DNA from: Bilabrum cf. latius
Lineage: Eukaryota
Reading direction: 5' to 3'
DNA length: 64,000 nt
Assembly: GCA_965178125.1 (NCBI GenBank)
Contig: OZ237758.1
Location: 310,001 to 374,000, forward strand
Program-made: the position numbers and the translations under genes
In this document: piece after piece, positions 1 through 64,000 of the stretch
How the letters are laid out: each line of letters begins with the position of its first letter
Numbering within the stretch: position 1 is the first letter of the stretch
The notes under the pieces: generated by a model
The model's database searches: none
What the model was told of the DNA's origin: nothing
What the model saw: only the letters and a program-made list of their open reading frames with translations

Positions 1-3000
1 GCGGCTTGCGTCATCCGTGGTATCTCTCGCTGCCTTGTCTGGCTGCTTTGGGGAGGTAGCAGAAGCAGCTGCCGTCAGAAATGCACCCTCTCCCTGCCCC
101 TGCCCTTGCTATCGACCAAGCTGCGGAGTGCGCGGCGATGTCTGCAAGGAACGCGGTGATACAGACCCAGGCGATACCATAGCGCCTCGCCTCACTTTCA
201 CCGGCTGCCTCGGTGCGACCTGGGCTCTGCACGAGCACGCGGCAGCACTGATAGCGGCCGCTACCCACGCGGGATGCCCGGGCAGGAAGCACATGTACCT
301 CGATTTATGGCTACTACTGGCGGAGCCCGCACCACCCGTTGGCCCACTGGAGCCAGGAGCAGATCCACCTGCTAGCTGCGCCCCCGATTCCACCCCCATC
401 ACAGAGTATGCCATCCGCTCGACCCCGATGGGCTGTCTCGAAGCCTGCCTCTCGATAGCCGCTTCGAGGATGCTGACCCTCGCAGACCACTGTCGCCAAC
501 ACCCCTGGATGGTGGCCGCAGCTCCGTGCTTACGACGGTTGCGCGTGCGACGGATCCACATCCGCTGGACCAGGGTGGCTGCCTCGTACTCGCGTCGCTG
601 GTAGTGCGACAGTGCCAGCATGGCCTCATCTCCGTCGTATACCTGGGAGAGAGAGGACCGGCGGGATCGAGCGCTGGGTCTCGGCTAGATGGACTTCATG
701 ACGTCCTGCAGCTCTCTCTCTAGCGCCACCGCCTTATCTTCATCATCCGAATCGAGATCTTTGTCGTAGCGCGCGTCAACACCGCCCTCCTCGGTGCGCA
801 CGTCCTGCATCATTTGGTCCAGCGCCGCCATGGCCTCCTCCGCTTCTTCCGCCGCCTCGCCGCCCCGCTCCATCTTTGCCTCCAAAAAGGACCGCTAGGC
901 CGCCAGGCGATTCTTCGTTGCGATCATGGACTCCTTGCGCTTGAGCAAGGCGTCCTTGCGCGCGAGCGCCGCCAGCTGCGACTGCGAGATCCCAGCGGCG
1001 GCCTCCTCGAAGGCGGCGAGAGCGTGGGGGGACGAGGAGCGCCCCGCCCTGGGGCTGGACTCGGACCCGCTGGACAGCAGGCTGCGAGGGGAGGAGCGCC
1101 CATCCCTAGAATCCCCTGCCACGGCTAGGTCGGGCAGCTTGGGCCTCTACGCATCGTGGCCGGTTGGCGACGCGGCTGTGGCCGGGCGGACGCTCTGGAA
1201 CGACTGCTCGTCTCGATCGCTCGTCAATCCTCGCCCCTCCACCGTCTTGGGGCGCCCTGACAAAGCCGAGGATCGTCCACGAGCGGGCGACCTGGTCGCG
1301 TTGTCCCCGGATGGAGTCCCCCCGACCATCCTTGGCGTGGTCGTTCGCTTTGGCTGCAGCTTTGGGGCGCCTCGGAGCAGCCAACCCGAGAGGGAGGCGG
1401 TAGTTTTTCTCCTCCACAGCCACACCTTTGCCACTGCCTGGACTGCTCGCACAACCGCGTCAATGTTGTGCAACCTCGGCTGGCTGCCCCGCCGACCGGT
1501 TCCACCGGCCATCATGGATAGCTTGTGGGACCGATTGAGTCTCGAGCTGCGACCTCCTCTGCTGCCTCGGCTCTTGCCCATGGAGGACGTGGGCGACGAG
1601 GGGGGCTCCGGAATAGAGACGCTGTCTTTCGCAAGCCGCAGCACATCGCTGTCCTGCCCACGCCTCTCTTTCATCGTCGGGGTGGGTGGCGGCGCCGGCG
1701 AGCCGCCGCGGGAGCTGCCGTCTGCACTCAGCCCCGACTCGTGGTACCGTTTCAGCGCTGCCAGGAAGGGGCTGGAAGGGCGGCCGGTCCCGTCGTCGGC
1801 TTCGAGAACGCGACCGCCTGCAGCGTGCACCGCAGCGACCAGAACCCTGACGGCTGACGGTGTGCTGTCGCTCAACCGAGACCCCACCCCGCTGCCTCCG
1901 TGGATGCCCGTGTGCAGCTGAACGGCTGCCTGTCGCAGCCGGCCGTTCACAAAGCGCCGCACCTCTTCGGCTGGCATCGTTGCAATGCGATGCATGCGAT
2001 CTACCTCTGCCAGCACCACGGCCAGCTGTATGGCGTCCAGCATCAGTAAGAGCTCAGCGTCGGCGACAGCCTGCGAGCCGGGCGTCTCGCCGGCCGCTTC
2101 ACCCGCTTCGTTTCGGTCGGTCCCCTCCAGCGCCCGCACTACGTCCCCAGGGACGATAAGCCTGGGCGTGAGCCTAGGCATGGTGTCGAGAGTCCATGGC
2201 AACGATGCGGTGGCGTCTTTTCCGGATCGGATCTCGCTCAGCTGTCGCCTGGCCCGCTCGACCCCGGGTTCCTGGGCCAGTCTGATGGCAGCGATGGCTG
2301 CCTGCGATGCGTCTGTGCCCTCAAAGGCAGCCCGCCACAGCGACATCACTCGCTGCACCTCTGTTGCGGCTGCCCGGAGGTGCTGCGATGGCGATGCCTC
2401 CGAGGAAAACTGCGGGTCCGGAGCGGACAAAATGGGCGTGGCTGCAGGGGGCAGCGCGGCCATGGCCGCTCGCAGGGCGGAGGGTGGAGGCGCCGTCTGT
2501 TTGACCCTCTGCGTAGCCAAGAGCTCCCGCCGCCTCGCACTCATGGGCTCCACGAGCTCGCCTCCCTGGCCCGTTCCCCGCGCAGGCGCAAAGCCGGCGG
2601 CCGACGTGTGTTGACTGCTGCCCACACGGACGCTGCCTCGCAACCCCATATCAGCATTGCTAGCACCTGCCTCATCCATTGGATTCGAAGGGTGCGCTCT
2701 CGCTAGCTGGGTGGCGGCATGTTGTTCTGCAGGATGGACGAGATGCCCGTCCAACTGGCACAGCCAGCACCGGATCCTCTCCATCCCTCCTGGGTGACCT
2801 CCACCAGCAACCGATGCAGGCCCGCCGTGACCGGCGGACCCCGTTCCCCTGCGAGTCGGACCTGTTTCATCGTCATCGACGGGCCCCTGCCCCTGCCAAA
2901 TTCCACCATTGCTGGTGTGCCGCCCCATCTGCAGGCACACGAGCAGGCACAGCCTCCGCACGAGCCGCAGGATCTCTCGCCTGGCACTCGAGCGAATCTG

Positions 3001-4247
3001 CACGCTTCCCCCCCCGCCTGCCACCGAGGATGACAAAGAAGCCAGGCTGCTGGCTCGGTCTCTCATTCCGTGCGAGGACCTGCTCGCGACTGCGGGCAGC
3101 ATCATGGAAAGGGACTGCCTGTGACCGTGGTCCGCGTCCCCGCGCATCTCCATGCTGGCTAGTGCGGAGACCAGCCCAAGACCTGCCCGTCTGCCAGTGG
3201 TGGCTGCTGGGAGTGATGCCACTGCGGTCACTGCAGCAGGAGGGGCCCCTGTCGGACCTGTGACGCGCTTGTTCCCTGGTTTGTTCCCTGGCTTGGACGC
3301 CGACAGGCTCTCCCCGCGCACCCCCAGGCTGGAGGCATCGGCGTCGTCGGGCCCTGCCCGTCCGCCCATGGCCTGAGTTGCTGCAATCGCAAGGTAGTCC
3401 GGCAGCAGCCCAGCAGCATGCATGGTCCCATCGGCATGGCCCGATTCCGTTCCGAGTCCAGCTACATCCATGCCGCTGCTGCTGGGTCCGATCGAAGCGA
3501 AACTGCCTGCAACGGCATCTGGGCCAGCCTTTGTCGGCTTGCTGACCAGCGGCAGGAGAGGGTGCCATCTCTGGGCCAAGTGGACCACAGTTTCTTCGGT
3601 TCCGTTGGTCGCAGACGTGTGCTCTCCTTCACCATAGGCAAAGGAGGCGATGCTCGCTCGCGCAGTCTCCTCTGCCGGTGCCGGCCACAAGGCCCTCAGC
3701 AGGCCCGGATTCGAATGCAGTGTAAGCACCCGCAAGCTCTGCAGCTATCCCAATGAAATAATATCAGACCAACTTGTTAAGTGGTTCTCGTGGAGATACA
3801 AGACTGATAGGAACGGCATGCTAGCCCAAGCCGAGCTAGTGCCAAGACTCTGAATGTTGTTCCTGGCCAAGTCAAGCTTGATAAGGTGACTAGCTGAAAC
3901 CCTTGGTTGAATCACATGCTCCAACTACATCGGGAATGTTCTGTCTTCGAATATTGCCGGCAAACGCTCCAATTTATTTCCGTGGAGGAATGCTGCCTGC
4001 GGCAGAGACAGGGATCGCAAGCAGTATGGCCCAAAGTGAATGCAGACGCACGGTATTCATAGACAATAAAATACCCTCAACTCCTTACGGCAAGCTGTGC
4101 TGTCTGGGCCAAGTCGTGGTTCTCGCCTTGCGATTCATCCACCGGAGCAGCTTGCAACAGCTCAGACTGCAATGCCGCATCGTCAATCCCAGCAGACGCT
4201 CTAACGAGCACGGCTATTGTGGATGTTAAAATTGACGAGTCGTCCAT
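1..4247 (-). CDS. Leucine-rich-repeat + IQ-motif protein (LRRIQ3-like), 3' end runs off the window; one predicted intron ~4088-3997
   Basis: ORFs 1147-3735, 895-1122, 685-885 and 109-621 are one frame separated only by TAG. Upstream, in frame, are LRRs (AAFLHGNKL, LIKLDLARNNIQSL, LSVLYLHENHL, L*SLRVLTLHSNP region). IQ-like motifs AATLVQRMWIRR and AAATIQGCWRQW occur near 500-600. Predicted intron GCC|gtaagg...ccgcag|GCA; ATG at 4247. Confidence 0.7.
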
Positions 4248-4586: not shown

Positions 4587-5447
4587 ATGGCAGGCGCAGC
4601 TGGATCTAGTAGCTCCAAGATCAAGGTTGGTATTCTGGGTGCAGCTGGCCGCGTTGGACGCCGGTTGTTGGCGTTGGCATCGGAGGATGCAGAGTTTGAA
4701 GTTGTCTGCGCAATAGTCCGAGAGGGCTCAAGCGCTCGCGGGAAAGCCGTAAAGGATGTCGAGCCTTAGATTAAGACAGGTACATCCTGGGAGCTTCTTG
4801 AATGCAACACGGAAGAATCGGTGGACGCTTTGCCTGACGTTGTCATTGATTTTAGCAGCGCCGATGCCATGGTTGCGCACTGCAATCGATTGGCAGAGCG
4901 AGGAGTTGCGTTTGTTTCGGGAACAACGGGGCTCAGCGATGCCCACAGAACAGCTCTAGCAGAAGCATCGAAGAAAGTGCCTGTTTTGTGGGCGCGTAAC
5001 TTCAGTCTAGGCGTGAACCTGATGCAGCGAGTGTGCGCTGACGTTGCCAAGGCGCTCGGGCCGGCCTTCGACATTGAGATCACAGAGGCACACCACAACC
5101 GCAAGGCAGACGCCCCATCTGGAACAGCGATGGCGATCGCGGAGTCGATCTGCAGCAGCCTGGGGAAGGACCCCAAGGCCACCCTGCGCCACGGGCGTGA
5201 GGGCCGCACCGATGCCAAGCGAGTGGAGGGCGAGATAGGCATGCACGCCCTTCGGATGGGCGCCGTGGTGGGCGAGCACACCGTCAACTACGCCTCTGAT
5301 TTCGAGCGGGTGGAGATTTCTCACCGCGCCCAGACGAGGGATGTCTTCGCGAGCGGAGCGCTCACGGCTGCCAAGTGGATCGCGGCAAAGAAGGCGGGCG
5401 GGGGCTCGGGTCAGTTCGACATGAATGACGTGCTGTTCGGCAGCTGA
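4587..5447 (+). CDS. dapB: 4-hydroxy-tetrahydrodipicolinate reductase (286 aa, one in-frame TAG at 4767)
   Basis: N-terminal IKVGILGAAGRVGR nucleotide-binding motif joins in frame across the TAG to DVVIDFS, VSGTTG, NFSLGVN, EAHHNRKADAPSGTA, GEHTV. Ends in TGA. Confidence 0.95.
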
Positions 5448-23736: not shown

Positions 23737-24579
23737 TCATCGGACGACACGTACCAGATCAACGGCAACATCTGCGGACGACTTTGTGTGGAACGCGTAC
23801 GACTTTGGCAGGTCGAACCGGAGCTCTGCCACCACCTTGGCTTCGCTCGCGCCCAGGCCCTCTTTGGCCACCTTGAGCACGTGTTCCCTGGTGCTCGACT
23901 TGTGCATCGAGTACACTGCCCCGCCCTCTCTCACCAGCCCAAGGCCCGCGGCAAGGAACCGCATGTCCGCACCTGCATCCCTGGTCCCGAACGGGGGGTT
24001 GGTCAGCACAGTGTCGAAAACGCCTGCAGGTGCCGGTGCCGATGAGGCAGTGCCACTGCTAGGCAAAGACGCAGATGCGGACCCATAACCCTATGATGCA
24101 GGCCCAGATGCAACAGTGCTTGCGGGCTTGGCGAGCTCTGGCGGCACGGTCGCTGATGCGCTGCATGCTGGTCGAAGAGGCAACCGGCGAACATCACAAT
24201 TGATAAACTCAATCGCCTCGCACCCCAGCTTCTCGCAATTTGATTCGGCTATAGCAAGTGCTTCGGCATCTATGTCGAACCCAACCACTCGAGAGGCACC
24301 CGAGAGATCAGCAGCAATCGATAGCATCCCAGTCCCACACCCAAGGTCGCCTACATTCCTTCCAGCAATGTCTCCCAACCTCGCAGCGTGAGCTAAAACG
24401 TGCGCACACACCTCTGGTTGGGTCATATATTGCTCAAGCTCAATTTTGGGATCCTCAAAGGATTCTACTGAGCTCAAGGCAATTCGCAGCTTCTTTGGGT
24501 TGACTACAGGGTAGGAAAACGCGACTTTGGGAGGAACAGGGGGCTCTGGGCCTTTGGTAGATGCGCTACTTTCTGCCAT
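23737..24579 (-). CDS. METTL5: rRNA N6-adenosine methyltransferase METTL5 (280 aa, one TAG at 24091)
   Basis: FEDPKIELEQYMT, DLGCGTGML, FDTVLTNPPFGT, YSMHKSSTRE, ELRFDLPKSYAFH. The two halves are in one frame across the TAG. Confidence 0.93.
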
Positions 24580-24760
24580 ATTCCAATATGATAGCTCTGC
24601 TGTGGCAGGATGCAGATACTCGCGCAGTTGCACTTCTTCTCCAGATGGAGGTTCCGCAAAATGCGCGGCTACTCCAGCTTCAGGCCGTTTCGAACCTGGT
24701 GCCTTACGGTATCCCAAGAGGTGCTACCGCCCGATCTGACTGCGCGGGCCGCTTCCATTA

Positions 24761-39942: not shown

Positions 39943-40381
39943 ATGGCTAGACATCGTGAGGAATACATTGACAAGCGATTCAAGGCCTTCAATATTCCAG
40001 CAAGCTTGACATGGATACCCAATGCACTTTTACTTGACCGTCTCTCATTCCGCAGAGCCCGACCTAGTAATGTGCCGAAAGACTACCGGGATTGTAACAG
40101 GCAAGCTATGTGAGGGCTGTGCAGGTCGCTGTCCTATCTGCGACAGCTACGTCAGGCAGCATGAACCGGCAAGGATATGCGACGAGTGCGACTATGGCAG
40201 CTCATCGGGCAGGTGCATCATTTGCAAGCGAGCCGGGGCGGAGGACGCTTTCTACTGCTTTGAATGCTGCTAGCAAGAGAAAGATAGGGATGGTTGTCCC
40301 GCAGTGATAAATATGGGCAAGCAAAGGGCATCGACGTACTACTCGCAGAAAAAATATGGGTTCAAGGACAGAACCACATGA
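39943..40381 (+). CDS. PHF5A: PHD finger-like domain protein 5A (SF3b subunit, Rds3); intron 39956-40054
   Basis: [13 protein letters not shown]...[19 protein letters not shown]...ICDECDYG...[22 protein letters not shown]...KKYGFK-...TGA. Confidence 0.95.
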
Positions 40382-40420
40382 CGAGGACACGGATTCTCTC
40401 TCGGCCCATTAGGTATCGTT

Positions 40421-48200: not shown

Positions 48201-51200
48201 ATCGATGCCTTGGTGGACGATGTAGGCACCTGCAGGGCAAAGGCAGCCAGAATGAGGTGCGTGTTCGATGCTAGCGAAGGCGAGGGCAAAGGCGACTTTT
48301 TTGATATGGCGAATGGCAAGAAGCGGCTGGTGGCTTAGTAGGAGCAGCGCGTCAAGCTCGATCAGTACCTGCGCATTCAACAGGCTGATTCAAAGGCCAA
48401 TAGGCTTTGGCAGACTATTCGTATGAAGCAGAATGCCGTTGGCGCAACGACGGACCGGCTGCACTACATCCAGGACTGCGCAGACCAGGCGGTCAAGATG
48501 GGAGGGGACAGAGATGCTTTCCTCCGCAAGTACTTCAGGATGACTTCCGAGAGCCTAGACAGCCAGGTGGCTACGTTCGATACTGCTGCATTCATGGGAA
48601 CACATGCGCAGAAGGACCTGTTTCCTGTTGGAAGTGTCGACACCTACTGGAGTAATCTGAACGACTTGCACACAGACTGGCTGATGAGGTTCAAGATGTC
48701 AGAGGACACGGTGTCCAAGCTGGAAAGCCATATGCTGGGTCTTTCTCCGCCCGATCTAGCGCTGCGTGACTTCGCTGCCGCATCCCGGTCCATCGCAGAC
48801 CCACTAGACAGCGAGTTCTACCGGCTCACGGCTGAGCTTGCGCAAGCCGAGTCCCAGTGCAGCACGCTACTGTTGGCTGAAACTGCTATCAGAGCTGCTG
48901 AGGACGTTGGAGCGGACTCCAACTACATCGCATAGCATGTAGTTCTGACCCAGTAGTCTCCTGGAGATATTTCCAAGGCGCGGAAAGCCATGGAGAAGGT
49001 GAACCAGAGACTGCGGGACGACTGGGTTGAGCTCCTGAGGGAGACGAGCAATGCGGAGATCGCCGAGATTTCCGAACGCACTGGGCTCAACATGGTTGGC
49101 GCCGTAGACTCAATCGAAGATGCTATCAAGGAGGCTGCAAGCAAGAGCGTGCCGCACGACGCTCCTGCAGATGGGTTTGACATCGTCAGCGTCATGCAGG
49201 ATGTGTTTGACAATGGCCCAGCTGACCCACCAGTCGGAGCCCTGTCCGCCGAAGAGCTCGAGGCGGCAAAGAAGATGACATCAGTGGAGGAAGGCGACTA
49301 GGTCCTGTACTTCAAACGGGATGCCGATGGCGACGTGGTGCTGGATAAGGAGAAATCCTAGTTGGGGTGGGAGGAGCCAACCCGGCCTCGCAGCTACTCC
49401 GAGACGCTGCCAGAGCTGAATGAGATGGATGGAGGCGCCGATTCTGCTGCGAGCTCCGGTGAAACAGTGATAGAGAAGATGTCTGACGTCGACTCATCAT
49501 TCTGGTCAGACCCTGCCAGTGACTAGCAGGTGGCAGAGCTGTCTGCCGACGCAGACGTTAGGCCGTCACTTGACGATATCGACATCCGTGAGCGCAGCAA
49601 ATCTGAAGTGGTCACGTCCAAGAGTGACCTGGAAAGCGGTACGGAGGCTCCAGGGAAGGACAGCAAAGTACCTGATGAGGGCAGTTCGAAGGGTGGCTCT
49701 GACCTGGGATCCCATCCAGATGCTGCGGGTGTTGACATGGGGCAAGCATCGGTTGCAACGCCAGATGAAATTGCTGCTCAGCTCGCCGCCAGCAAGCAGG
49801 CCATCAAGGACATCGACTCATTCGCCTTCAAATCCATCAAGCGTATGCCAGGCCAGACCCTGACCAGCGAGCGCGCCATCGCCAAGAAGGTGCTCGAGAC
49901 CAACGCCGACCTCGTCCGGTACGACGCCCTCGTCAAGTACGGCGAGGAAGCAGCTGCCAAGGGCCTGGACGCCGATGCTGCGCTGCTCAAGGCGGCCGAC
50001 ATGACGCTGGAGCAGGCCAAGCGGGCCAAGGAGGCCAATGAGCTGGCCATGGTGTGGAGCATGCATGGGACGAGCGGAGACACGCAGTCGATGCTGAGGG
50101 AGGTGCTTGACGGTCCCTATGCTGCAAGAGCAGACGGTGCAACGTTTCCGATGCAACTGGCGAGTTGTATGGAGCCACTAGACTCTACATCGGAGGCCAT
50201 GGTGGCCGGGCTGCGAGAAATGAGGGGGGAGCCACTTCCGAAGTATCACCCTGCAAGGATGCAGTATCTTCGTGAGGCCAGTCAGTATGCCATGGACCCG
50301 CACGGTGAGTTAATGCCTTTGTTCGTGTAGGCCAACATGGTGAATGGCTTACGGCAGGAAATGCTGCAACTAGAAGCGGCTTACGGAGTCGCCACTCTTG
50401 CCTAGAAAGCTGGGGTGGACAACTCGGTCCTCCTCCGGATCGTGAGCGATTCTGGCGACCTTTCCGGACTAAGCGAAAAGATTGCTTAGGTGAATCGCCA
50501 AATTCGCAAAGAGAGCGAAATACTAGTATTGCATAAGGTTGAGGTTTTCGGCACTCGCACGAGAGAGTCCGTGCTTAGCGCAGCAGAGAATACACTAAAT
50601 TTACATTCTGCCAGCGTGACGCCCGAAGACAGGTCGTACATACTCGCAATGTTGGATGAGGCGTGGCTGCACAAGTCGGAGCCGAATGCCGCTGAGTTGA
50701 CCATTGACCGAAGCATGCCGAAACAACGCGCGAAGATGGACACGGTATACATGCACAACGGAGAGCGAGTCAAGGTCAAGATTCAGGACGACTACATTGG
50801 CACTGGCGAGAACGTTGACAGTACTCCTGGCAGCAAAGCTGGTGGTCAAGAGCATCCTGATACCGATCTACACCACCAGCAGAGCAACTTACAGTCGGAC
50901 AAGGTTGCCGACATTCCAGTTGATCCAAGCACAAACCAAGAGCTAGTTGCATGGCAGGCAGCCAACAAGCAGGCCATCAAGGACATCGACTCATTCACCT
51001 TCAGATCCATCGAGAACATGCCTGCACAGGAGCTAGCCAAGCAGCGCGCCTTCGCCAAGAAGGTGCTCGAGACCAACGCTGACCTCGTCCGGTACGACGC
51101 CCTCGTCAAGTATGGCGAGGAAGCAGCTGCCAAGGGCCTGGACGCCGATGCTGCGCTGCTCAAGGCGGCCGACATGACGCTGGAGCAGGCCAAGCGGGCC

Positions 51201-54200
51201 AAGGAGGCCAATGAGCTGGCCATGGTGTGGAGCATGCATGGGACGAGCGGAGACACGCAGTCGATGCTGGGGGAGGTGCTGACCATGGACGGGGCGGTGG
51301 AGGGCAGGACGTTCCCGGTGAAGCTCGCCGGTGCTGTGGACTCCAAGGGGGATGCGGCGATGATGAAGGTGCGATCGGCTCTGGATCGGATGGGGAAGGA
51401 GCCACTGCCGGAGTTCCACCCGAAGCGCATGGCGGACCTGCAGCAGGCAAGCACACTGGCGAAGTCACCGAAGGACGAGCTGGCTGAGGCATCCAAGCAG
51501 GCGGACCACCTGATCAGACTCATGAAGAGCTAGCGGGCTGAGGCATTCGAGCAGGCGAACCTGATCCTGAAGCTGCGCTTTGAGGAACTCGATGCTCGAG
51601 CCGCCCTGTGGGCCGCCCAGCTGGCCGAGTCGAGTGGCGTGGACCCGTCGGCGCTGCTGCGCCTGGCGAGTGACAGCGGGGACATGGCAGGGCTGACGAA
51701 CAAGATCGCAGCAATCGAGAAACAAATCAGTGGGGATAGTTATGGTCTGCTGGTGAAAAAGCTACGTGTTATTGAACGTATGACATTTAAGGACGTGACG
51801 GAAGCAGAAGTGTAGCAAGCCGTGGACATTTTGTTCGAGAAGGCCGAGAGGGGCTCACCCGATGCCCAATACCTTCATGCCATGGCGCAGGAAGCCCGAT
51901 TGCACAATATAGGCAGCACTGATGCTTCCCTTGTGCTGGACGATCCGATGAAGGATGGCATTGATCTGTCCTCTGGCATCGATGGAGCCAGCGGCAAGCC
52001 AGGAGATGCTAAGATTCAAGAGGACTATTTCGGCAGTGGCGGGCACGATGCCGAGGTCGAGCCGAATGTCGGCCCCGACGCTGGCAAGAACCCGACGGAT
52101 CACGGCGGAGACACCACCGCTGGTCAACCTTAGGACACCCCGATGGATCCAGACCGTGATGGCCAGCCGATCGTTACGGAGCCCCGACCCGATGAGTCTC
52201 TGCTTGATGGCGTTGATCCGCTCTCTGGCAGCGATGGAGCCAGCGGCAAGCCAGGAGATGCTAAGATTCAAGAGGACTATTTCGGCAGTGGCGGGCACGA
52301 TGCCGAGGTCGAGCCGAATGTCGGCCCCGACGCTGGCAAGAACCCGGCAGATCACGGCGGAGAAACCATCGGAGGTGACACTTCTTAGGACACTCCGTTG
52401 TATCCACCCCTTGATCCCCCGCCGATCTATGAGCCCCTACCTGAACCTCAGCTTGATGGCGTTGATCCGCTCTCTGGCAGCGATGGAGCCAGCGGCAAGC
52501 CAGGAGATGCTAAGATTCAAGAGGACTATTTCGGCAGTGGCGGGCACGATGCCGAGGTCGAGCCGAATGTCGGCCCCGACGCTGGCAAGAACCCGACGGA
52601 TCACGGCGGAGACACCACCGCTGGTCAACCTTAGGAAACCCCGATGGATCCAGACCGTGATGGCCAGCCGATCGTTACGGAGCCCCGACCCGATGAGTCT
52701 CTGCTTGATGGCGTTGATCCGCTCTCTGGCAGCGATGGAGCCAGCGGCAAGCCAGGAGATGCTAAGATTCAAGAGGACTATTTCGGCAGTGGCGGGCACG
52801 ATGCCGAGGTCGAGCCGAATGTCGGCCCCGACGCTGGCAAGAACCCGACGGATCACGGCGGAGACACCACCGCTGGTCAACCTTAGGAAACCCCGATGGA
52901 TCCAGACCGTGATGGCCAGCCGATCGTTACGGAGCCCCGACCCGATGAGTCTCTGCTTGATGGCGTTGATCCGCTCTCTGGCAGCGATGGAGCCAGCGGC
53001 AAGCCAGGAGATGCTAAGATTCAAGAGGACTATTTCGGCAGTGGCGGGCACGATGCCGAGGTCGAGCCGAATGTCGGCCCCGACGCTGGCAAGAACCCGG
53101 CGAATCACGGCGGAGACAAGATCGACTACGAGTACTACAATCCCGAAGACCCGGCGAATCACGGCGGAGACAAGATCGACTACGAGTACTACAATCCCGA
53201 AGACCCGGCGAATCGCGGCGGCGACAAGATCGAGCACGTCCAGCCTGAGAATGCGCCAAGTGGGCCTGCACAATTGCAGGCCGAAAGAGCGGCCGAAGCT
53301 TGGTTCCCAGCACGCCAGCACATGCAAGACCTGCCAATGTCGATCGAAGTTGACGGTAGAGCTGTTGACATCAGCGCGCTCAGCAGAAAGATCAACAAGC
53401 GCCTCGAGAGCACACGGTCAGGACTTATTTCGATCAAGAAGGACCTGTTGGATGGAGCGCTCCCGAAGGAGGCCCTGGCCAGCATCACGGCAAATGGGTA
53501 CTCTAGCGTGCTAGACAAGTCTGCCGAGATGATGCTTAAATTCCGGAAGAATGAAGCGATATGGGATGTTGCTGTTGGCCTGCTCAAGCGAGGCGAGTCG
53601 AGAGAAAGTGTGGAGGCTGCAGTCCAGGCCACCTTCGGCGTTTCAGTAAAGGAGGCAAACATTGCCAGGAAGGAGCTACGGTTGGCAATGGCAGTGACCG
53701 CCTTCGCTCCAACCGGTTCTCCCACAGCCGCTTCCAGGGGCATTCTCGATCAAGTTGGATTTCAAAGCTCCGCAGGTTTTCAAGCGAGCTTTTCCAAGTA
53801 CTTCAAGAATCCGGGTAAGGCTGAAGCAGCTAGTTTGCGTTTGCGGCAGCTTGTCGCCGAAGCGCGCCCAGGGACCGTGCAAACGTTTGATCGCGCGACG
53901 CTTTCCAAATTTGTGGCGACAACTGAAGGCTAGGCCGAGTTCCAGTACTCACTAGCTCTGGAAATGGCCAAGTACAGGGCTCTGGAACCCGATCCGAGCT
54001 ACGTGAAGGGGTTGCTCAAACTGGCTGAGGAGACGAATGCCAACCCGACAGCCCTTCTGGAGAACACCGTGTCTCTTCCCAAGGGCGCTGTGAGTTTTGG
54101 AGAAGGTGTGATCAACCCAGAGTACCGCAAGCTTCAAGATATCTACGGGCCCAGCAGCTAGCTAATCAAGGACGACGCCAAGAAGCTCCTGAAGCCGAAG

Positions 54201-55421
54201 GAGTAGCAGCTTGTCGACGCCCTGCAGTCATCCCCACCCATCATGAAGCAGCAAGCCAGCCTAGACCAGATGTCGCGCTTGCAGCAAGCGTTCGAGCGGG
54301 GTGTTGCGGGGCGTGAGGAGAAAGCATACCGCAAGACCATGCTTGATTTGGAGAGAGAGCTGAAGAGAATTGGCGCAGATGGAAAGAAGAACTCATAGAA
54401 GGTCCCCAAGAAGAACGCGGCGCAGAATTCAATGTCCTTCATCCAGTTAGCGGCTGCCATCGACACAAATGCGTCCCCGGTCACACTGCAAGACAAGGCC
54501 GACTTGTCTCGGTGCCGGAACACGCAGCTGCAAGACTGCGACATAGGGACAACTGGAGACCGGGAGATCCGCTTGACGCCGGGTCAAGGCCTTAGCTCAC
54601 CGTTTGCACTTACTCGGCACGGCATCTTTAGCGGCGGTCTGCATTTCCTCAACCTACGCATGCAGTCAGACGGCAACCTTGTTCTGCAGGATGGCGACCG
54701 CATTTTGTGGGACATCTGCGATGGAGGTCGCCAGTGCAGCACCGATGGAGTCGACGAGCAGCACACGCTGCTGCTCGACGGCAAGGGCGACCTCATGGTG
54801 CTCGGCTCCGACCCAACGGACGTAAAGTGGATCGTCGGTGCGTCGAACAAGGGTCCGGTTAGGGACCTAGTTATCCAAGAAGACGGGAACCTGGTCATCT
54901 ACAGGTAGACCGGAGAGGCCATCTGGACGTCTGTAACGGCCGGATTCCTTCGCTCGCCCAACATGCGAGTCGGCGAGTGGGATCGATCGCTCAACTACCT
55001 CTAGTACAGCCAGGGCGACGTGATTTGCAGCGCCATTGCCGTCTCGTTTTGCGAGCCCGCGTTGACACGAGATGATGAGATCCGCTCGTGCATGTTCCGT
55101 GGTGAGCGTCTGGACCAGGATCAGTTCCTTCGGGCGCCCGGGGGTGACGCATTCTTGACCATGCAGGGCGACGGAAACCTGGTGCTGTACCACCACGGCA
55201 AGTCCGTTTGGGAATCTGGGACTGATGGAGATGGAGAGGGGCCCTTCGCCGCAATCTTAGATATTAAAGGATCGTTTTAGGTGGTTGACCGCAACAAGAA
55301 TGTCCAGTGGAGATCAGATCGCGACATGAAGTATGCAGTGGTCAACGTCTAGGTTGGGCCTGAGCGGGCAGAGTTCCTTGGCTACGATGGGGTATCAGGC
55401 CCTAAAGTAGTGAATGACTGA
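42285..55421 (+). CDS. Giant (4378 aa) putatively secreted bulb-type (B/GNA) lectin repeat protein
   Basis: One frame over 13,137 bp with ~32 TAGs and no TAA/TGA until 55419. Hydrophobic N-terminus MQIVVGMTVGLLACCANYAAS. Lectin motifs QTDGNLVL, QDDGNLVL, *EDGNAVL, QSDGNLVL, QEDGNLVIY, QGDGNLVLY. Confidence 0.85.
46020..51720 (+). repeat. Four dispersed ~700-bp intragenic repeats (starts ~46020, ~47067, ~49788, ~50960)
   Basis: Each begins ASKQAIKDIDSFAF...KKVLETNADLVRYDALVKYGEE. Copies 1, 2 and 4 are near-identical in DNA; copy 3 only over its first ~320 bp. Confidence 0.92.
51960..53235 (+). repeat. ~4.5 tandem copies of a 252-bp unit (84 aa, D/G/P/E-rich), followed by ~2.5 copies of a 54-bp unit
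   Basis: Unit DGASGKPGDAKIQEDYFGSGGHDAEVEPNVGPDAGKNP... with period 252 (52644 to 52896), then PANHGGDKIDYEYYNPED repeats. Confidence 0.92.
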
Positions 55422-56487: not shown

Positions 56488-57954
56488 TTACCGGTTCCCT
56501 CCTGCGATCTTGCTGCTCTCGGGCAACTGCCTCAGCCACAACATGGCGCCCGCACCCATCAGCGGAGGGATGCCCAGCATCAGCCACGCGACGCCCCACC
56601 CGGCTTCCGGTTCGACCACAGGTACCAACTGGATCGTAACGATCGTCACTAGGAAGCCGAGGCCTGTGCTGGCGGTCAGCAGCGTCCCCTGATACCGAGG
56701 GTCGCAAAGCTCGCTCACACAGGCGCTGTACTGCGCGCTGTCTGGGATAATTGCGGCACCGTACAGCAGGGTACCAAGCAAGATCCCCACCCGCCCGCCC
56801 TCCGTGGAGCCTTCGATCCAGCCCAGCCACAGGGCCGTCGAGCCGCTGATCACGAGCGACACCGATGTGACGAGCGTGCGACCAACTTTGTCAGCAAATG
56901 CCCCAGCGACTGGACACAGCACCGCCCCGACAAAGTACGCGAAAAATGCCACCAAGGAAGACACCTTAATCTTTGATTCCCCACCACCAGGCGACCCTTC
57001 CGCGTCGTCGTCGTCCACCATCGGCTCCACGCCGTCCCACGCCTCAAGCCTGTCTTCCAAAAATGGGCCGACCCAGGCCCAGAACGCGTACAGCTCCCAC
57101 TGGTGGCACAGGTAGCCTACCACAGCGAGTGCTAGCGGCAGGTCTTGCACCATGGCCAGGAGTGCGCTGGGCTCGAAGGCGGCAGGCGGCTTGGAGTGGG
57201 GCCCATCCGTGACGAGCAGCGTCATCATCAGCGCACCTGCCACCGAGAAACCGCTGCTCATCCACACAACCGCCCTCCAATTCTCAGCAAATAGTGATCT
57301 GAGCAGAAAAGGCGAACCCGAGCCGAGCGTGAGCGCGCCCACCACGAACCCAAGAGCGTATCCCCGTCCGTTCACGAACCAGCCTGACAACACTTTCATC
57401 GCTGGGGGGTACACGCCGGCGAAACAAATGCCCGCGCTGAAACGCAGCAGGAATAGCAGCCAAAAGGGCTAGGCTGGGATTACGCAGGCATTCAAGATCG
57501 CTGCAAGGATGGCACACGTCGAGAACAGCCACCGAGGATTCAACAAATCGGAAAGGTTGGAAATGCTCATCCCAGCGGTTCCCACGACGAATCCTGCCTG
57601 AACACCCGCAGTCAAGGCTGCTATCTATGACGCTGAAATGCCTTTCTAGCTTTCAAGGGCCGTAGCTATTGAATTAGTGGAGAACCAGGTCGTCAATGTG
57701 AATAGGGTGCTGGCTACTACAAATATCAGTGCCTAACTCTACCGAGTGCTGCCATCTTCTGTATCGTCTGTATCATCAAAATTGGTGCAACCAATACTGC
57801 GCTTCGTTGCCGGGCTTGGGTCGGTTGAAGACCCATGCCGGAGATTCGCGAGCTCCACGTCTCCTCGGGTGCTCGACTGCAACTAAGCGACATGTGCTGC
57901 TGCAGCGCTATGCTTGGCATCCTCGTGCTCACCCCAGGTCACTACATCTGACAT
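56488..57954 (-). CDS. Major facilitator superfamily transporter, prokaryote-like (488 aa)
   Basis: TTWFSTNS, ISAS*IAALTAGVQAGFVVGT, GVYPPAMK, HQWELYAFWAW, ADKVGRT, DSAQYSA. Six TAGs in the N-terminal third; ends KIAGGNR-TAA. Confidence 0.85.
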
Positions 57955-58054
57955 ACAATCCTATCCTCTATCGGTTGACGATTTCCACTCGGGTTGAGAG
58001 TGAATGCCCTCAGGCAGATCTCGGGCCGCCTGCTAGGGCTCCGGATTGTGGGAC

Positions 58055-58076
58055 CCTAGACTAGATCTAGTCTAGG
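58055..58076. repeat. Perfect 22-bp palindrome
   Basis: cctagactagatctagtctagg equals its own reverse complement. Confidence 0.9.
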
Positions 58077-58170
58077 CCAACGTCGCCATCAACAAAAAAA
58101 AGCATGTTTCCAGCTCAACAACCCCCCTACGCCTTTCGGCGCAGGAGTACACAAGTCACAGGCAAACCGC

Positions 58171-61100
58171 TCACCCGCGGGGACGGCGAGCGTTGCCGCT
58201 CCCCCGGGGCCTGCCGCTGCCTGACATGTCCTCCAGCTGATCCAACTGGATAGAGCTCTGCTAAAGCGTGAACCCAGAGCCACAGCCAGAGCGGGCAGCT
58301 GAACCGGGTGCGCCACTGCTCGATCCCGCCGTTCCACTGCCGGACGCCTGACCCAGTGCCGGCCCAGTGGCCCAGGCAAACACGGCACCGCTCCGCTCTG
58401 CGCCATTGGACGAGGATGACGCCGCTCCCGAGCCACTGCCAGCGCCCCCAGATCCCATGGCGTCCCATCCCATCTCCCACCCCTGGCCGCCACCCGCTGA
58501 CCCAACAACCCTGCCATCCTCCATATCCTTCTCGTCCCGTCCGTCCTCTCCATCAGATGACCCGGCCCGGTCACCGTCCGGCTGCGAGAGGTGCGCGCTA
58601 CCGGAGCCTGCCGGCGAAGTCGCCATTTCGATCGTGCGTCGCCTCAGCTGCGGCTTCTCGCTCGTGTCTTCCTACAGGTCGCGGCCTCTGGGCGCCGGCC
58701 TAGCCCTTCGCCTGCCCAGGAGGCTCTTACGACCACCAGCAGAGGAGGAAATTCCGCCTAGGCCTGGCATACCAGGCATACCAGCCATGCCAGCTATGCC
58801 AGACGAGAGGTCCAAGGGTTCCGAGGGCAGCATCCTCGCCGCAGATCCGGCGCTGCCTTTGGAGCCCTTGGATCCCCCGCTGCCCCGCCGCGGTCTGCCG
58901 CCGGCCAGCGTGTCGGCCCCAGACCCGCCAGCATCGCCGAGCGCCATGAGCTCCACATCCCCCGAGCTGGAGCTGTCGTCGGACGCAACCGGTGGCTTTC
59001 CATTGTTGGCAGCGACCGTTAGCCTCCTCATCATCTTGATGACCATCTCCTGGGCCTCGTCCCCCTTGGATGCCTCCGTGTTCAGGGAACACATAGCTCC
59101 GGAGGTAGGCCCCCGCAGCCCCGCACTGGCTAGCCCGGCAAGCGCCTACGGAGCACCACTGCCCGCCAGCCCACCGCCCACTTCGGCGTCGCTCGCGCCA
59201 CCGCTGGACATCGCTCCCGTCATGTCGAACAACTGCATGGCGCTGAGACCCGCCAGCCCCTGCTGGGCCCTCGCTGAGGACGAGGCACCTCCACCTGGCC
59301 AGCTGCGCTTCTCGTTCAGAGGGTCTCGCCCGGCTCCCATGGCGCCCGGTCCGCCCAGCAGCTGGTTCTCCTGCAGCAGCGTGGCAGCCGCTCTGATCAT
59401 AGAGGCGATGGAGGCGTCGGTCCCAAGAGCAAGGTCTGCCGGGCTGTCCCTTCCAGCGTGGGTGCTCCATCTAGTGAGCGTCTTACCTGCTGGGGGGGCG
59501 TGCGAACTCTCTGGGCTCTTGCTGCCAGCACCGGGGCCGCCCCTGCGTCCCCTCCTCATCCTCTCATCCTGCTGCTGCAGGATAGACCGAAAGTCAGCCC
59601 CTCCCGCCATCAGAGCAATCATGCACATCTGATCGTTCTTTTTGGCGGCCAGGAACAGCGGCGTCTCCCCGTCCACGGAGGCAACGTTCGCATCCGATCC
59701 TGCGTTCAGCAGGAGCTGGAGTGCCAGGCTGGCACCCGCGCGGGCTGCCCTGTGCAGCGCCGTCTCCCCCCTCACACCCTCCTTTGCGTCTGGGTCTGCG
59801 CCCGGGCCAGGTTTGCCGACCTTGACCTTGGTGCGAGGAGTGGGAGTGGGGGGGATGCCCTGCTTGATGGGCGCGTCCGTCCCGGGGTGCCTCTTGAGCA
59901 TCTGCACGTACTGCTCGGACTCGCCATCGCTGCTGACCGTGACGTGGCGCACCCAGTCACTCTCAGGCAGCGCGTTGCCCAGGAGCAAGCGGAGGGTTTC
60001 CAGGTGCGGGGTCGTCTCGAACTTGGCTGCCTCCATCAGAGGCGTCAGACCGAACGCGTTGCCTTTGGAAGGCGAGGCACCCGCCACCAGCAGGCGGTAC
60101 ACGAGGTCGGGCCTCCCCTGCCTCGCGGATCGCATCAGCGGGGTGCTGCCGGCGGCGGGTGCGGCGTCAGGGTCTGCGTTTGCCTTGAGAAGCATGTCGG
60201 CAGTGCGAAAGCTGCCCCTCTCCACCGCCAGCGATAGTGGGGTGTCGAACTTGGAGCGTGAGGGGGACAGAGTAGGGTCCTCGCCCGCCGATGACTTTCG
60301 CTCTGGCGAAAAGGAAGATGATGACGCGGCTGTGGCTGAGGTGCTGCCCCCTGTTGAGCCCTCGCTGCCCCGCCGCCGCCCCGGTCGCTTTCTAGGCCCA
60401 GGCGAGGCTCCAATCTTCAGCAGCGCCAGCACGGTCTCGGAGTGCCCGTGCTTCGCGGCCAGTGCCAGGGGTGTGTACCCTTGCGTGCTGCGGCGCTCGA
60501 GCCACTGCTGCTTGGGAGGGAGCTGCGCCGTCGGATTGCCATCGGCACCGTGCGGTCTCTGTGCAGCAGCAGCAGAACTAGCGCCCCCGCCCGCCTGCTT
60601 CGCGCTGCCCGGACCGGCGGCTCGCGGCTTTGGGCCTGGGCTCGGCACGGCATGCATGTACTGCACGAGTTTGAGGACCCGCTGCACCATTTCGAGGCTG
60701 CCTGACTTGGCGGCATGGTGCAGAATCGTCTCTCCCTTGTCCGAGGTGCGCGTGATCTCCATCACCGTGGCCTCGCGCACGACCTCCGGCCCTCCTCCAC
60801 CTCGCAGGGCCCCCTTCCCACTGGCCCTCCGCTTCAGCGCATCTATGCAGGCCGCCACAGCATCAGCGTTGCCAGAAGCAGCGGCCAGCATCATCAACGT
60901 GGTGCCCCGTTTGACTGAGTGCCAGGACATGGGGTCGCCCACGTCGATGCTGACGTACCCAGTGCGCCTGGACAGCGGCCTGCCCTGTCCTCTGAACCGA
61001 GTCGCTGGTTTCCCAGCCGCCGTCCACTCCATCCCTGCAGGCGCTTGCTCGTGCGCAGCAACCGGTGGAGCCGACATGCAGTTTCGTTCGGCCTCGCACG

Positions 61101-63990
61101 TGGACTCGAGGTGCTCTTCCATGCGGAGCAACAGCGCCAGCGCGTTCGGGCGCCCGGCCTGGGCCGCCTGACCAGCGAGCGTGAGCATCGAGTTACGAGC
61201 CTTGTGCTGGTACTGCTTTAGCACGGCTGGAGTGGTGCTCTCCTGCCAGCAAGCCACGCTGAGGGCGAGCACGACGTACTCTGCCGCCGCTTCCTCGCTG
61301 GGGGTGCACCCCTGCCGCAGGCACCGACGCAGCGCCTGTCGCGAGCTTGGCTCCACGGACATGATGCTCGAGGCCATGGCGCGGTTGAGGGCCTTCAGAG
61401 CCTCTGTCTGGTCCAGCGCGGCGTCGCTGAGTCTCATGGCACGCCTGTTGTCCGCGGGTCCCACCTCGGGAAACGCCTCCAGCATCAGGGTAGCTCTTGT
61501 GGCGCGCTCCTCCCGGAGTGCCATGAGCCTGGGCCACTCCTTGCTGACAGAGGAGGTTCGGCGATTCACCAGCACCAGCATGCGGGGAATGCTGCCGTCT
61601 TCGGGGAGGTACTCCTGAAGCCACTGCCGGCGCACTCTGGTCTGAGCCCACGCCCGTGTCGCTGCCGAGCACAGCCGCGTCGGGACGTTCATCTCCGTCG
61701 CCTGCTGCTGGGCGATGCCGTTGGGCACCAGCGCTGCGTGCCTCAGCACCTCCATGACGCACTCGTCATCATCAGCGAGGTGCGCAGAGGCAGCCACGTG
61801 CAGCAGCGTCTGGCCCTGTGTATCCACCCTGCACAGCACGTCCGCCACGGAGGGCACGTGCGTCATCTGACCGCACTAGCCCTTGTCTCTCAGACGAGCC
61901 CTGGCCGCGTCCGAAGTGCTGCGACCTCTTGGCGAGGCGATAGGCGTGGCTTTCACCAGGTGGTGCACGCCTGCCCGCTCGTCGACGACCATCCACCGGT
62001 CCCTCAGGTCGAAGCTCTTGGGCAGCTGCCTGGGGATGGTTGACTCAGTCTCCATGTCGCCAGAGTCTCGGCCATTCGCGAGGCTGCGGCTGCCCATCGC
62101 ACCTGCGCCCACCGCGGCCGAGTCAACGCCTCTGCCACCTGGAATGCGCATGCCTGCCATGATGCCACCCAATCCACCAGCGTGCCCTCCATTGCTGCCG
62201 CTGCCTCCCGCTGCGGTGGACATCCAGGCAGCCCTGCCAACGGGCGCCGAGGACCCCGCGTCTGTCACGCTCGTGGTGCTGACAAATGCGGCACCGACGT
62301 GCGTGGACGCCCCGATGCTGCCTAGCGCGGACAGCCCGAGGACGTCGTCTGCTTTGCTGCCATGCACCGACAGCAACCCGTGATTAGGTGCCGGCTCCCG
62401 CGCTGCTGAAGTCGGTCCGGGGGGCCACGAACCCGCAGCAGTCGCTGGTCCCGACTCGCTCTGGGCCGCAGCTCTGCCGCTGCGTGTGGACGGCACATCC
62501 GCGCTGCCGACGCCAACTATCTCGCGGAAATTGGTCGAGCCTTGCGATGCGATAGACCCAGCCCTTCGCCTGCTCCCGCCCCCGCTCGCCACCGATCGGG
62601 TGTCCAGCCCGAGCAGGATGGAATCCGTCCTGCGGAAGTCGTACGCCCCAGGGATACTGCCCACGCCCATGCTCCCCTCCGAGTCGGTGTCCAGGGAAGA
62701 CGTCGACATGGCGAGGGGATCTAGTGCGCCGTCACCGCGATCCTGACCAAAGCCAGAAGCACGGGGTGCCGGAGGAATATTGCGACCAAGTGACCCGATT
62801 GACCTCACCGACGCGCCGTCTGCGCCTTCTGAGCGTGCTCCTGACGACACGTGACGTCCCCGCCTGCCCCTGGCCACCTCGGTACCCTCATCCTCGTCCT
62901 CATCATCATCCTCGTCCGATCCGCCCGCCGCACCGCTACCCCCCATTGACACCTGACCCGCAGAAGCATTGCGCTGGGTCGTGGGCTGCCCGTAAGGGGT
63001 GGAGCCCTCGGGCTCGTGCACGTCGTCGGTGCCTGCGTGCGCCGCGCCCGTAGGGCTGTCTGCAGGTCCGGGTGCCCCCGCCAGCAACCGGGTTGGCATC
63101 GCCGGGGTGTTCTCCTGCGTGTCGCTGCTGTGACTTCCTCTGCGCGCGGAATCCACGTGCGGGTCGTCGGGGCTGGGTCTGCTAAGTGCCGAGCCCGTTG
63201 GGTTGAGGAGCGAGTTGCTCGCGGCGAGCAGCCTTGCGAACATTGAGTCGCTCGTGTCCTTGGTGGAGCCGGCCTCCAGCACGGGAGACTGCACGCCCAG
63301 CCTGCCTCCTTTGGACCGCACCGAGCCGCCGTCATCCGCTAGCTCGATCCGCCCGAAGGACGAGTGCCATTCCCGCAGCCTGTGCAGCAGAGCCCCAAGG
63401 AGACCGGCCTCGCCCAGGTAAGCCGCCAGCTGCACTCCGTCCCAGCCCATGGCCTCCACCTCCAGTCCCGCCTTCCTCGCCCTGACCCTGAGGATGGATG
63501 CCGCGGTGTCTCCGCGCCCGCAAAGGAAGGCACGATGTGCTGCGGTCCTGCCGCGCCGGTCCTGCCTGGCCGGGTCAGCACCGCGCTCCATCAACCTGTC
63601 CACAGCCGCGTTGGCACCGCAGCTGGCGGCCAGCAACAGGGGTGTCGAGTACCGTATGCCGCATATCCTCGCAGCACGGCTGGCTGCAGGTACCAGCAAC
63701 GCATCGCTCAGCCTAGCTTCCTGCTCGTCGCTGATGCGGTCAGTGGCAGCCGACAGTATCCTGGACAGAGACACCTCGCCACTATCGCCCCCATCGTCGT
63801 CCCCGTAGGCATCATCGTCATTGCCACCACCCACACCGCCTCGCAAGGCGCCGTCACCAGCCCCTTGCTCCATGCTCCCGCTCCCGTACCCTGCCTCGGC
63901 CATGCTGCTCATGAACGCCAGCGCGGATGAAGACGGCCTCCCACTCGCACCGCCACCTGCACCACGGGACCCAGTCCCTACACTGGCCAT
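58171..63990 (-). CDS. Large ankyrin-repeat protein (at least 1939 aa; may extend past the window edge)
   Basis: Many ankyrin repeats (STPLLLAA, GQTLLHVAA, GETILHHAA, GYTPLALAA, GLTPLMEAA, GETALHRAA, GETPLFLAA). Four ORF fragments are joined by TAG; TGA at 58171. The frame is open to position 64000. Confidence 0.85.
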
Positions 63991-64000
63991 TGGCTGTGGT

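Follow-up and report, generated by a model that had tools for sequence, protein, structure and literature searches.

UAG alone has been reassigned to glutamine, the pattern of NCBI table 15, in four lineages other than the present one: the fornicate Iotanema spirale, the ciliate Protocruzia tuzeti, and two phyllopharyngean ciliate lines, those of Hartmannula sinica and Trochilia petrani (excerpts of PMC11687900). According to the same excerpts, 58-70% of the inspected UAG sites in those ciliates lay on conserved glutamines and the rest did not, and 93.5-100% of the C-terminal alignments ended at UAA (PMC11687900). Codes in which both UAR codons mean glutamine (NCBI table 6) are listed there for many ciliates, Dasycladales/Cladophorales, Hexamita, Streblomastix and Amoeboaphelidium (PMC11687900). 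UAG has also been captured for leucine in an uncultured rhizarian and some phyllopharyngeans, for serine in Scotinosphaera and for glutamate in an oligohymenophorean ciliate (excerpts of PMC11687900, PMC10553269). Outside nuclei, TAG-to-Gln recoding (code 15) is described in crAss-like and other gut phages (excerpts of PMC9523058).

The window, by which we mean the whole 64-kb stretch of DNA that was analysed, looks like another case of the known UAG-only-to-Gln code, in an apparently new lineage. Our analysis indicated that it very probably comes from the nuclear genome of a GC-rich eukaryote whose introns are few and short, and in which UAG has become a sense codon, most probably for glutamine, while UGA (mainly) and UAA terminate translation. 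As in the table 15 pattern, UAG was read as sense and aligned with conserved glutamines, and UAA was still a stop, so the two codons were uncoupled. The mix of conserved-Gln and other UAG sites was also similar to that described in the excerpts for the UAG-to-Gln ciliates. Unlike the ciliates in that account, the window is GC-rich (56-68%) and non-ciliate, and its frames end mainly in TGA. Unlike both Iotanema and the ciliates, the organism has the stramenopile Cafeteria as its closest named MCCC2 relative. The gut phages with code 15 use the same codon with the same meaning. According to the excerpts, the phage itself encodes the suppressor tRNA, which works in a bacterial host with the standard code and often serves late genes only; in the window, by contrast, the recoded genes are nuclear and eukaryotic and have spliceosomal introns. 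We found no published report of UAG recoding in the present lineage in the literature searched. The features of the window are collected in Table 1.

Table 1. Genes, open frames and individual TAG sites in the 64-kb window
Feature	Coordinates	Strand	Details
Weak leucine-rich-repeat frame	1..4056	-	Pfam LRR_4 and LRR_8, both below cut-off; 6 TAG; runs off window
DapB (dihydrodipicolinate reductase)	4587..5447	+	Pfam DapB_N E 6.3e-28, DapB_C E 7e-41; ends TGA
DapB TAG	4767	+	single; within N-terminal domain
P-loop gene 1 of four tandem paralogues	12254-14710	-	10 TAG
P-loop gene 2	14485-17103	+	9 TAG
P-loop gene 3	17356-20319	-	6 TAG
P-loop gene 4	20050-23007	+	5 TAG
Methyltransferase frame	23737..25257	-	Pfam Methyltransf_31 E 3.3e-11; 4 TAG
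CLASP-like gene	25874..31198	+	Pfam CLASP_N E 1.2e-25; 6 TAG
CLASP-like TAGs	27119, 27452, 29024, 29096, 29261, 29399	+	
Importin-11-like frame	32231..36418	-	weak Pfam TPR_IPO11 E 5.2e-4, below cut-off; 7 TAG
Ctf8-like gene	36773..37825	+	intron 36914-37006; weak Pfam Ctf8 E 0.0032, below cut-off
MCCC2 (methylcrotonoyl-CoA carboxylase beta)	37980..39799	-	Pfam Carboxyl_trans E 3.9e-158
MCCC2 CDS	39799-39767 + 39674-37980	-	spliced model; intron 39675-39766; terminator TGA
MCCC2 TAGs	39083-39081, 39635-39633	-	Q-invariant column; presequence
PHF5A	39943..40381	+	exons 39943-39955, 40056-40381; intron 39956-40055; Pfam PHF5 E 1.8e-38
PHF5A TAG	40271-40273	+	36 codons upstream of TGA stop
Giant lectin/repeat gene	42285..55421	+	4378 codons from ATG 42285; 32 in-frame TAG; ends TGA
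MFS transporter frame	56488..58155	-	Pfam MFS_1 E 8.4e-21; 9 TAG; ends TAA
Ankyrin-repeat gene	58171..63999	-	Pfam Ank_2 E 2.1e-41; 4 TAG; open at window end

The original prediction, made from the letters of the window, was that nearly all genes carry in-frame TAG and none an internal TAA or TGA. All TAG sites that it cited were present and in frame, and every one of the 16 long frames, together with the DapB gene, contained TAG. The 16 long frames held 115 in-frame TAG and not a single in-frame TGA or TAA in 18,681 codons, an absence that is partly circular for the frames without RNA support, which were delimited by TAA/TGA. No such circularity affects the giant gene, the Ctf8-like gene or the spliced models of MCCC2 and PHF5A. 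TAG occurred in frame at the background rate (6.2 per 1000 in the coding frames versus 6.7 per 1000 when all six frames are counted), and the trinucleotide counts on both strands were 1546 TGA, 343 TAA and 858 TAG per 128,000 positions. The longest open reading frame of the window was 924 aa under the standard code and again 924 aa with TAA read as sense; it reached 1204 aa with TGA as sense and 4436 aa with TAG as sense. The gain in length is specific to TAG.

The giant gene encodes bulb-lectin domains at both ends, with long internal repeats between them. The original prediction of about 32 TAGs and no other stop in this frame was exact, since the open frame (42111-55421, 4436 codons) contained 32 TAG, all downstream of the ATG, no TAA, and TGA only as terminator. 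The trinucleotide rates of the window would lead one to expect about 54 TGA, 12 TAA and 30 TAG in a frame of this size. Searched for homologues over its whole length, the giant protein gave nothing that scored, and a representative search with residues 1-1200 gave 33 matches, 5 of them useful; no fragment of the same organism or its close relative was among these 33. A metagenome locus retrieved with a single protein as query was discarded as spurious, being an unrelated plasmid-like contig that matched 20 residues.

A curated set of 17,513 codons contained 103 TAG sites and no TAA, although CAA makes up about a fifth of the CAR codons. Among 15 complete frames, 14 ended at TGA and one at TAA. 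TAA is therefore not reassigned in the window, and the change concerns UAG only, so the corresponding part of the prediction held within this stretch. The window resembles the UAR-to-Gln codes in that glutamine has taken over a stop codon, presumably by way of mutations in tRNA-Gln genes. Unlike those codes, in which TAA also means glutamine, it lacked in-frame TAA in the curated codons and used TAA to terminate the MFS gene, and we rejected assignment to NCBI table 6.

UAG accounted for about 14% of the presumed glutamine codons, and it is thus a settled part of the code rather than the product of occasional read-through. Programmed stop-codon read-through affects few sites and depends on a specific 3' context or a downstream structure. 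The 103 sites had no special 3' context: the +4 to +9 positions were near background, and the base after TAG (A.16, C.30, G.39, T.16) matched the base after CAG (A.16, C.33, G.37, T.15). Programmed read-through was accordingly rejected. Homology continued downstream of TAG in MCCC2, PHF5A, DapB, the MFS transporter and the giant gene. Among the residues flanking TAG, Q was enriched 1.67-fold and C 1.85-fold, a weak measure contaminated by UTR parts of the frames.

We then consider which residue UAG encodes. The strongest site was the TAG at 39081 in MCCC2, where glutamine occupied the column in 120 of 120 homologues, and E and K in none. At the giant-gene TAG 44646, in the QxDGNxV lectin motif, four of four homologues had Q and none had E or K; snowdrop lectin also placed Q opposite this TAG, in a weak alignment. 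TAG 50328 faced Q in all three repeat copies. These three sites bore out the claim that they are diagnostic for glutamine, but two others named with them did not. The site at 51813 was mixed (E/Q/N among the repeat copies), and the residue opposite the PHF5A TAG in human PHF5A was Ile. The alignment with the human protein reached the C-terminus (E 6.5e-41), and the PHF5A site is evidence for read-through, not for residue identity.

Most alignable TAG sites fell in variable columns in which glutamine was in the minority. Five of the nine MFS TAGs lay inside the part aligned with homologues, with majority residues of R 88, R 92, E 91, D 80 and D 70 out of 120, and with Q at 8, 1, 3, 5 and 5 of 120, respectively. 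Within the giant gene, TAGs 46773, 50403 and 50487 faced V, E and A in the repeat copies, whereas the homologues had E/D/E at 43536, W/W at 43554 and Q/I/A at 43815. The residues opposite TAG in the four P-loop paralogues, where many TAGs sit in Q/E/K-rich coiled-coil tails, were A 8, Q 7, G 6, L 4 and fewer of others, in alignments too divergent to be informative; only four N-terminal (GTPase-like) sites of these genes entered the BLOSUM tally. One methyltransferase TAG was within a low-complexity insert of the domain.

Likelihood tallies placed glutamine first. With HMM-emission log-odds, the scores were Q 5.9, K 2.4 and E 2.1 nats over 13 sites, and Q 6.9, E 3.2 and K 3.1 nats when restricted to the 10 sites at which a homologue aligned. 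A BLOSUM-pseudocount tally of 22 sites gave Q 4.4 and E 2.8 nats, with leucine at about -11 nats and both leucine and serine well below Q. In the conservative models Q led E or K by only 1.7-3.7 nats. The possibility that another residue dominates the TAG-aligned columns was thus addressed for part of the sites: glutamine won overall, while the variable columns showed R, E, D, K, V, W and I. As judged from these alignments, glutamine is most probably the meaning of UAG and the best supported one, probable rather than proven because many TAG sites are in variable columns.

It is improbable that the sense codon stands for some other residue, of which lysine and glutamate would be the most plausible. 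For both amino acids a single anticodon change leads to CUA, and ciliates and trypanosomatids provide known cases in which a stop codon was captured for them. The majority residues of the MFS columns, the E/D/E at 43536, a close relative with K at one MFS TAG, and the second place of E or K in both kinds of tally would fit such a reading. Against it, E and K were lacking at the MCCC2 column and the lectin motif, the relative, at 97-98% amino-acid identity, had Q at the MCCC2 TAG, and glutamine was the only residue found in all five MFS columns. The MFS open reading frame of this relative, on a 9475-nt contig, stopped exactly at the position of CAG 56691-56689 of the window, that is, opposite CAG and not GAG or AAG. 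Its stop codon there was presumably TAG, as judged from the end of the protein and not from the relative's DNA. The window shares with the UAG-to-Leu, UAG-to-Ser and UAG-to-Glu codes that UAG alone is reassigned. It differs from the first two in that leucine and serine fell far under glutamine, and from the third in that glutamate, the runner-up, failed at both conserved sites.

An ambiguous UAG, sense within genes and a context-dependent stop for some of them as in Condylostoma or karyorelict ciliates, is more improbable still. About ten genes without conserved C-termini have frames delimited by TGA/TAA by construction, which leaves some room for it. Where homologues anchored the C-terminus (MCCC2, PHF5A, DapB, methyltransferase and MFS, a small sample), none of the five genes ended at TAG, four ended at TGA and one at TAA. 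TGA and TAA behaved as plain stops, unlike in codes where all three are ambiguous, and the surroundings of TAG were not special. The ambiguous stop/sense codes of Condylostoma, karyorelicts and Blastocrithidia, which have all three stop codons in frame and use the same codon to terminate as well, were rejected, with no in-frame TGA/TAA and no TAG-ended gene seen in this small sample.

An atlas search with the domain of the CLASP-like gene upheld its identity, and the taxonomy was uninformative. The Ctf8-like gene had four TAGs in the spliced coding sequence and one inside its intron; a PDB search with its second exon returned no relevant match.

Contigs from sequencing runs of other studies were compared with the window. 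Three GT..AG joints were present in contigs of runs X5 and X7 (MCCC2 39674>39767 and PHF5A 39955>40056 in both, Ctf8-like 36913>37007 in X5) and absent from run X4, and the X5 and X7 contigs therefore appear to derive from spliced RNA. This origin was deduced from the spliced joints alone, as no holder run was recorded as RNA; the kinds of run had been guessed by a tool, which labelled X5 'probably DNA' despite its spliced joints. The X5 and X7 contigs kept TAG at 39081, 39633 and 40271 and spanned 25 of the 32 giant-gene TAGs, with no other letter at any of them. Four runs, each from a different study, yielded contigs with identical sequence at the TAGs, and none of the ten listed variant positions fell in a TAG; those in the giant gene were repeat-copy differences. 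Contigs rather than raw reads were compared, so a minority of edited transcripts would escape detection. Since spliced contigs from other studies retained the TAGs unchanged, both assembly error and RNA editing are argued against. The original prediction had named editing or splicing out of TAG and systematic CAG-to-TAG consensus errors as ways in which it might fail; the TAGs stayed in the spliced contigs, and no CAG/TAG differences appeared among the other-study runs at covered sites. It is therefore scarcely credible that the TAGs are anything other than translated codons, whether assembly or sequencing errors, U-to-C editing sites or pseudogene lesions. We found no support for any of these beyond the invisibility of rare edited forms in contigs; pseudogenes would have accumulated TGA and TAA as well, and essential genes such as PHF5A and MCCC2 are among those affected.

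Reading UAG as glutamine would call for a tRNA-Gln whose anticodon, CUA, differs from CUG by a single mutation. An eRF1 without UAG recognition would no longer compete with this tRNA, and fresh TAG codons could arise freely from CAG by a C-to-T change. The sole tRNA gene in the 64-kb window was tRNA-Arg(ACG), and neither tRNA-Gln(CUA) nor an eRF1 gene was present in it. The MCCC2 tree placed the query together with two database proteins (P0001 and P0002) in the clade that holds Cafeteria, a hint only, as most of its tips are unnamed.

Nuclear code changes are rare, and those in which UAG and UAA differ in meaning are rarer, with a handful known (excerpts of PMC11687900). We propose tentatively, with close to an even chance of being right, that the UAG-only-to-Gln code arose here independently, outside ciliates and metamonads, in a GC-rich, TGA-terminating, free-living, Cafeteria-related host, that this origin has so far gone unreported, and that one or more sister strains or species share the code with their TAGs partly elsewhere. 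If true, this would be the first nuclear stop-codon reassignment in the lineage of stramenopile flagellates such as Cafeteria, and a counter-example to the view that links UAR capture to AT-rich genomes and to a coupling of UAA and UAG. As a probably independent, GC-rich and UGA-terminating case, it would be a data point on stop-codon capture, bearing on codon disappearance under GC pressure, on tRNA-Gln mutation and on eRF1 specificity. In practice, annotation with the standard code leaves most proteins of this organism and its relatives truncated or in pieces, as had been anticipated, and such fragments are already in public collections: the MFS protein of the close relative is stored only as pieces of 295-300 aa. 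Genes should therefore be predicted anew, with TAG as glutamine, for the gene sets, phylogenomic matrices and metagenome bins of this lineage.

The frame that holds the giant gene (42111-55421, 4436 codons) contained 32 TAG, no TAA and a single, terminal TGA, against about 54 TGA, 12 TAA and 30 TAG expected from the trinucleotide rates of the window. TAG thus occurred at its background rate, while TGA and TAA were excluded, and the in-frame TAGs described in the original prediction are real. Across 16 long frames there were 115 TAG in 18,681 codons; DapB carried one further TAG, at 4767. As a control, ORF lengths were recomputed with each stop codon freed one by one. Under the standard code the longest ORF measured 924 aa, and freeing TAA left it at 924 aa; freeing TAG raised it to 4436 aa, and freeing TGA to 1204 aa. 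TGA is nearly twice as common as TAG, yet freeing it lengthened the ORFs far less, so GC-richness alone (56-68% per 4-kb bin across the 64-kb window) does not explain the long TAG-bearing frames. Among 15 complete frames, 14 ended in TGA and one in TAA. Frames of genes without RNA support were bounded by TGA or TAA, which makes the lack of internal TGA and TAA partly circular there, but not for the giant gene, nor for MCCC2, PHF5A and the Ctf8-like gene, which have spliced models. That UAG is a sense codon is close to certain.

Two sites proposed as diagnostic for glutamine did point to it. The MCCC2 TAG column had Gln in 120 of 120 homologues, and TAG 44646, the first position of the bulb-lectin motif QxDGNxV, faced Gln in all four aligning homologues; snowdrop lectin also has Gln there, in a weak alignment (E about 1). 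Among the repeat copies of the giant gene, the proposed site 50328 faced Gln in 3/3 copies; three other TAG sites faced Val, Glu and Ala. PHF5A does not point to glutamine, the human protein having Ile opposite the TAG. Other residues also dominated variable columns. Among 120 homologues, distant and bacterial-like, the five MFS TAG columns were occupied by R, R, E, D and D in 70-92 sequences, with Gln a minority residue in each column, and giant-gene columns 43536 and 43554 showed E/D/E and W/W; column 43815 showed Q/I/A. Nevertheless, Gln ranked first in two tallies. The first took the emission at each TAG column from HMMER profiles of homologue alignments, and scored Q at 5.9 nats over 13 sites, against 2.4 for K and 2.1 for E; over the 10 sites with an aligned homologue the scores were 6.9 for Q, 3.2 for E and 3.1 for K. 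The second, with BLOSUM pseudocounts and with repeat and paralogue columns included, gave Q 4.4, E 2.8 and negative values for every other residue over 22 sites. Both tallies are conservative; HMMER lowers the Gln emission probability at the invariant MCCC2 column to 0.30. We consider it highly probable that UAG encodes glutamine.

Systematic CAG-to-TAG consensus errors or editing of the transcripts might also account for in-frame TAGs. Contigs of four public sequencing runs, from four studies, were aligned to 36500-56000. In runs X5 and X7, contig joints excised GT..AG introns at 39674>39767 (-) and 39955>40056, and in X5 only at 36913>37007; the three introns, as set by the joints, are short (92, 93 and 100 nt). 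Run X4, of even depth and apparently from a DNA source, had none of these joints. X5 and X7 therefore contain spliced, RNA-derived sequence; the run kinds are automatic guesses, and X5 was labelled 'probably DNA' despite its spliced joints. Among the matches listed, X5 and X7 contigs retained both MCCC2 TAGs and the PHF5A TAG with no differing letter. At least 25 of the 32 giant-gene TAGs were covered in the same way, again with no differing letter, the remaining seven lying in repeats. Ten variant positions were reported, none inside a TAG codon. TAG is thus kept in spliced sequence and consensus error finds no support at the covered sites, although a contig comparison is blind to a rare edited fraction. 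In the spliced MCCC2 model, the N-terminus is a short arginine-rich presequence with a TAG of its own, so the start of this protein, too, requires TAG to be read.

If TAA also encoded glutamine, about two dozen TAA would be expected in the 17,513 curated codons, where CAA makes up about one-fifth of CAR codons; none was found, and a UAR-to-Gln code was rejected. Nor does programmed read-through fit. The bases flanking in-frame TAGs were near background, and the base following TAG was distributed as that following CAG; this lack of special context argues against motif-dependent read-through. Ambiguous stop/sense codes do not fit the window. TAG terminated none of five genes with homologue-anchored C-termini, a sample small enough to leave room for occasional TAG termination.

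Features of the window, which carries eukaryotic nuclear genes
Feature	Position	Strand	Remarks
DapB (dihydrodipicolinate reductase)	4587-5447	+	complete eukaryotic nuclear gene
Low-complexity frame	8398-12039	+	1213 codons
Four P-loop paralogues	12254-23007	alternating	tandem; ~820-990 codons each
tRNA-Arg(ACG)	23167-23239	-	only RNA gene; ~160 bases downstream of fourth P-loop gene
Ctf8-like gene	36773-37825	+	weak match
MCCC2	37980-39799	-	Pfam Carboxyl_trans, E 3.9e-158; TAGs 39083-39081, 39635-39633
PHF5A	39943-40381	+	eukaryotic nuclear gene; TAG 40271-40273
Giant gene	42285-55421	+	4378 residues; bulb-lectin domain at each end
High-depth segment	55379-56000		2-base insertion variant at 55935
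MFS transporter	56488-57759	-	eukaryotic nuclear gene
CLASP-like gene			eukaryotic nuclear gene
Small methyltransferase			eukaryotic nuclear gene
Ankyrin-repeat proteins			

Each P-loop paralogue has a P-loop (GxxxxGKS) and after it a DxEG motif and a Q/E/K-rich coiled-coil tail, with a Gly/Ala-rich hydrophobic C-terminus in two of the four. These motifs are reminiscent of GBP/atlastin-type GTPases. A Pfam search of the four gave no match above cut-off; one tail had a weak SseC-like match below it (E 1.6e-4). Pro-Ala runs, together with acidic or glycine-rich stretches, make up most of the low-complexity frame, in which a ~60-residue unit is duplicated; the frame had no Pfam match. The giant protein contains four copies of a ~280-residue unit and about five tandem units of ~84 residues; its homologues were only unnamed environmental proteins (38-42% identity) and one 68%-identical fragment. 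Just after its gene, contig depth rose about 20-fold (1014 in X4 against ~45 elsewhere), with many loose contig ends, so that a multi-copy repeat or mobile element probably lies there. Apart from the near-identical relative, the best MFS homologues were bacterial (42-48% identity; the named ones Chloroflexi/SAR202), which suggests horizontal acquisition. DapB implies a diaminopimelate route to lysine. Metagenome contig L001 (1-3590) was rejected as a related locus, its 20-residue match being spurious and the contig unrelated. It has a replication-protein-like ORF and a ~2.2-kb self-repeat (the same ORFs at 2-469 and 1383-2639, among others), and resembles a small circular replicon whose assembly overran its end.

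The best named MCCC2 match was Cafeteria roenbergensis (75% identity); a cluster at 78% is labelled Symbiodinium, possibly a contaminant label. A quick MCCC2 tree placed the protein in a clade with Cafeteria, only a hint of stramenopile affinity. The code fits the known UAG-only-to-Gln variant, which PMC11687900 lists for Iotanema spirale, Protocruzia tuzeti and two phyllopharyngean ciliate lines. There, only 58-70% of inspected UAG sites in such ciliates fall on conserved Gln, and the TAGs of the window are likewise partly on conserved Gln and partly not. The window differs from those cases in its host and in genome style, with GC-rich DNA and TGA as main terminator. A full-text literature search, outside subscription journals, found no report of nuclear UAG reassignment in a stramenopile, bicosoecid or comparable flagellate, and there is a fair chance of an unreported independent origin. 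By analogy with known reassignments, UAG would likely be decoded by a tRNA-Gln(CUA), alongside an eRF1 that would have lost UAG recognition; neither is encoded in the window.

Database protein fragments came from an organism with 97-98% protein identity. Its MCCC2 (P0001) has Gln opposite the window TAG. Its MFS transporter is known only as pieces of 295 and 300 aa (P0121, P0249), which begin at a Met inside the protein or at an alternative start codon and end exactly one residue before the site of a CAG in the window's gene. One piece lies on a 9475-nt contig, so it ends at a stop codon rather than at the edge of the contig. The simplest reading, taken from where the proteins end, is that the relative may have TAG opposite the window's CAG, a synonymous difference if TAG encodes glutamine. 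Opposite one window TAG these fragments have Lys, a non-synonymous difference under every hypothesis but TAG as lysine. The fragmentation anticipated for standard annotation is thus already present in the stored MFS pieces: standard-code gene calling breaks the proteins of this lineage.
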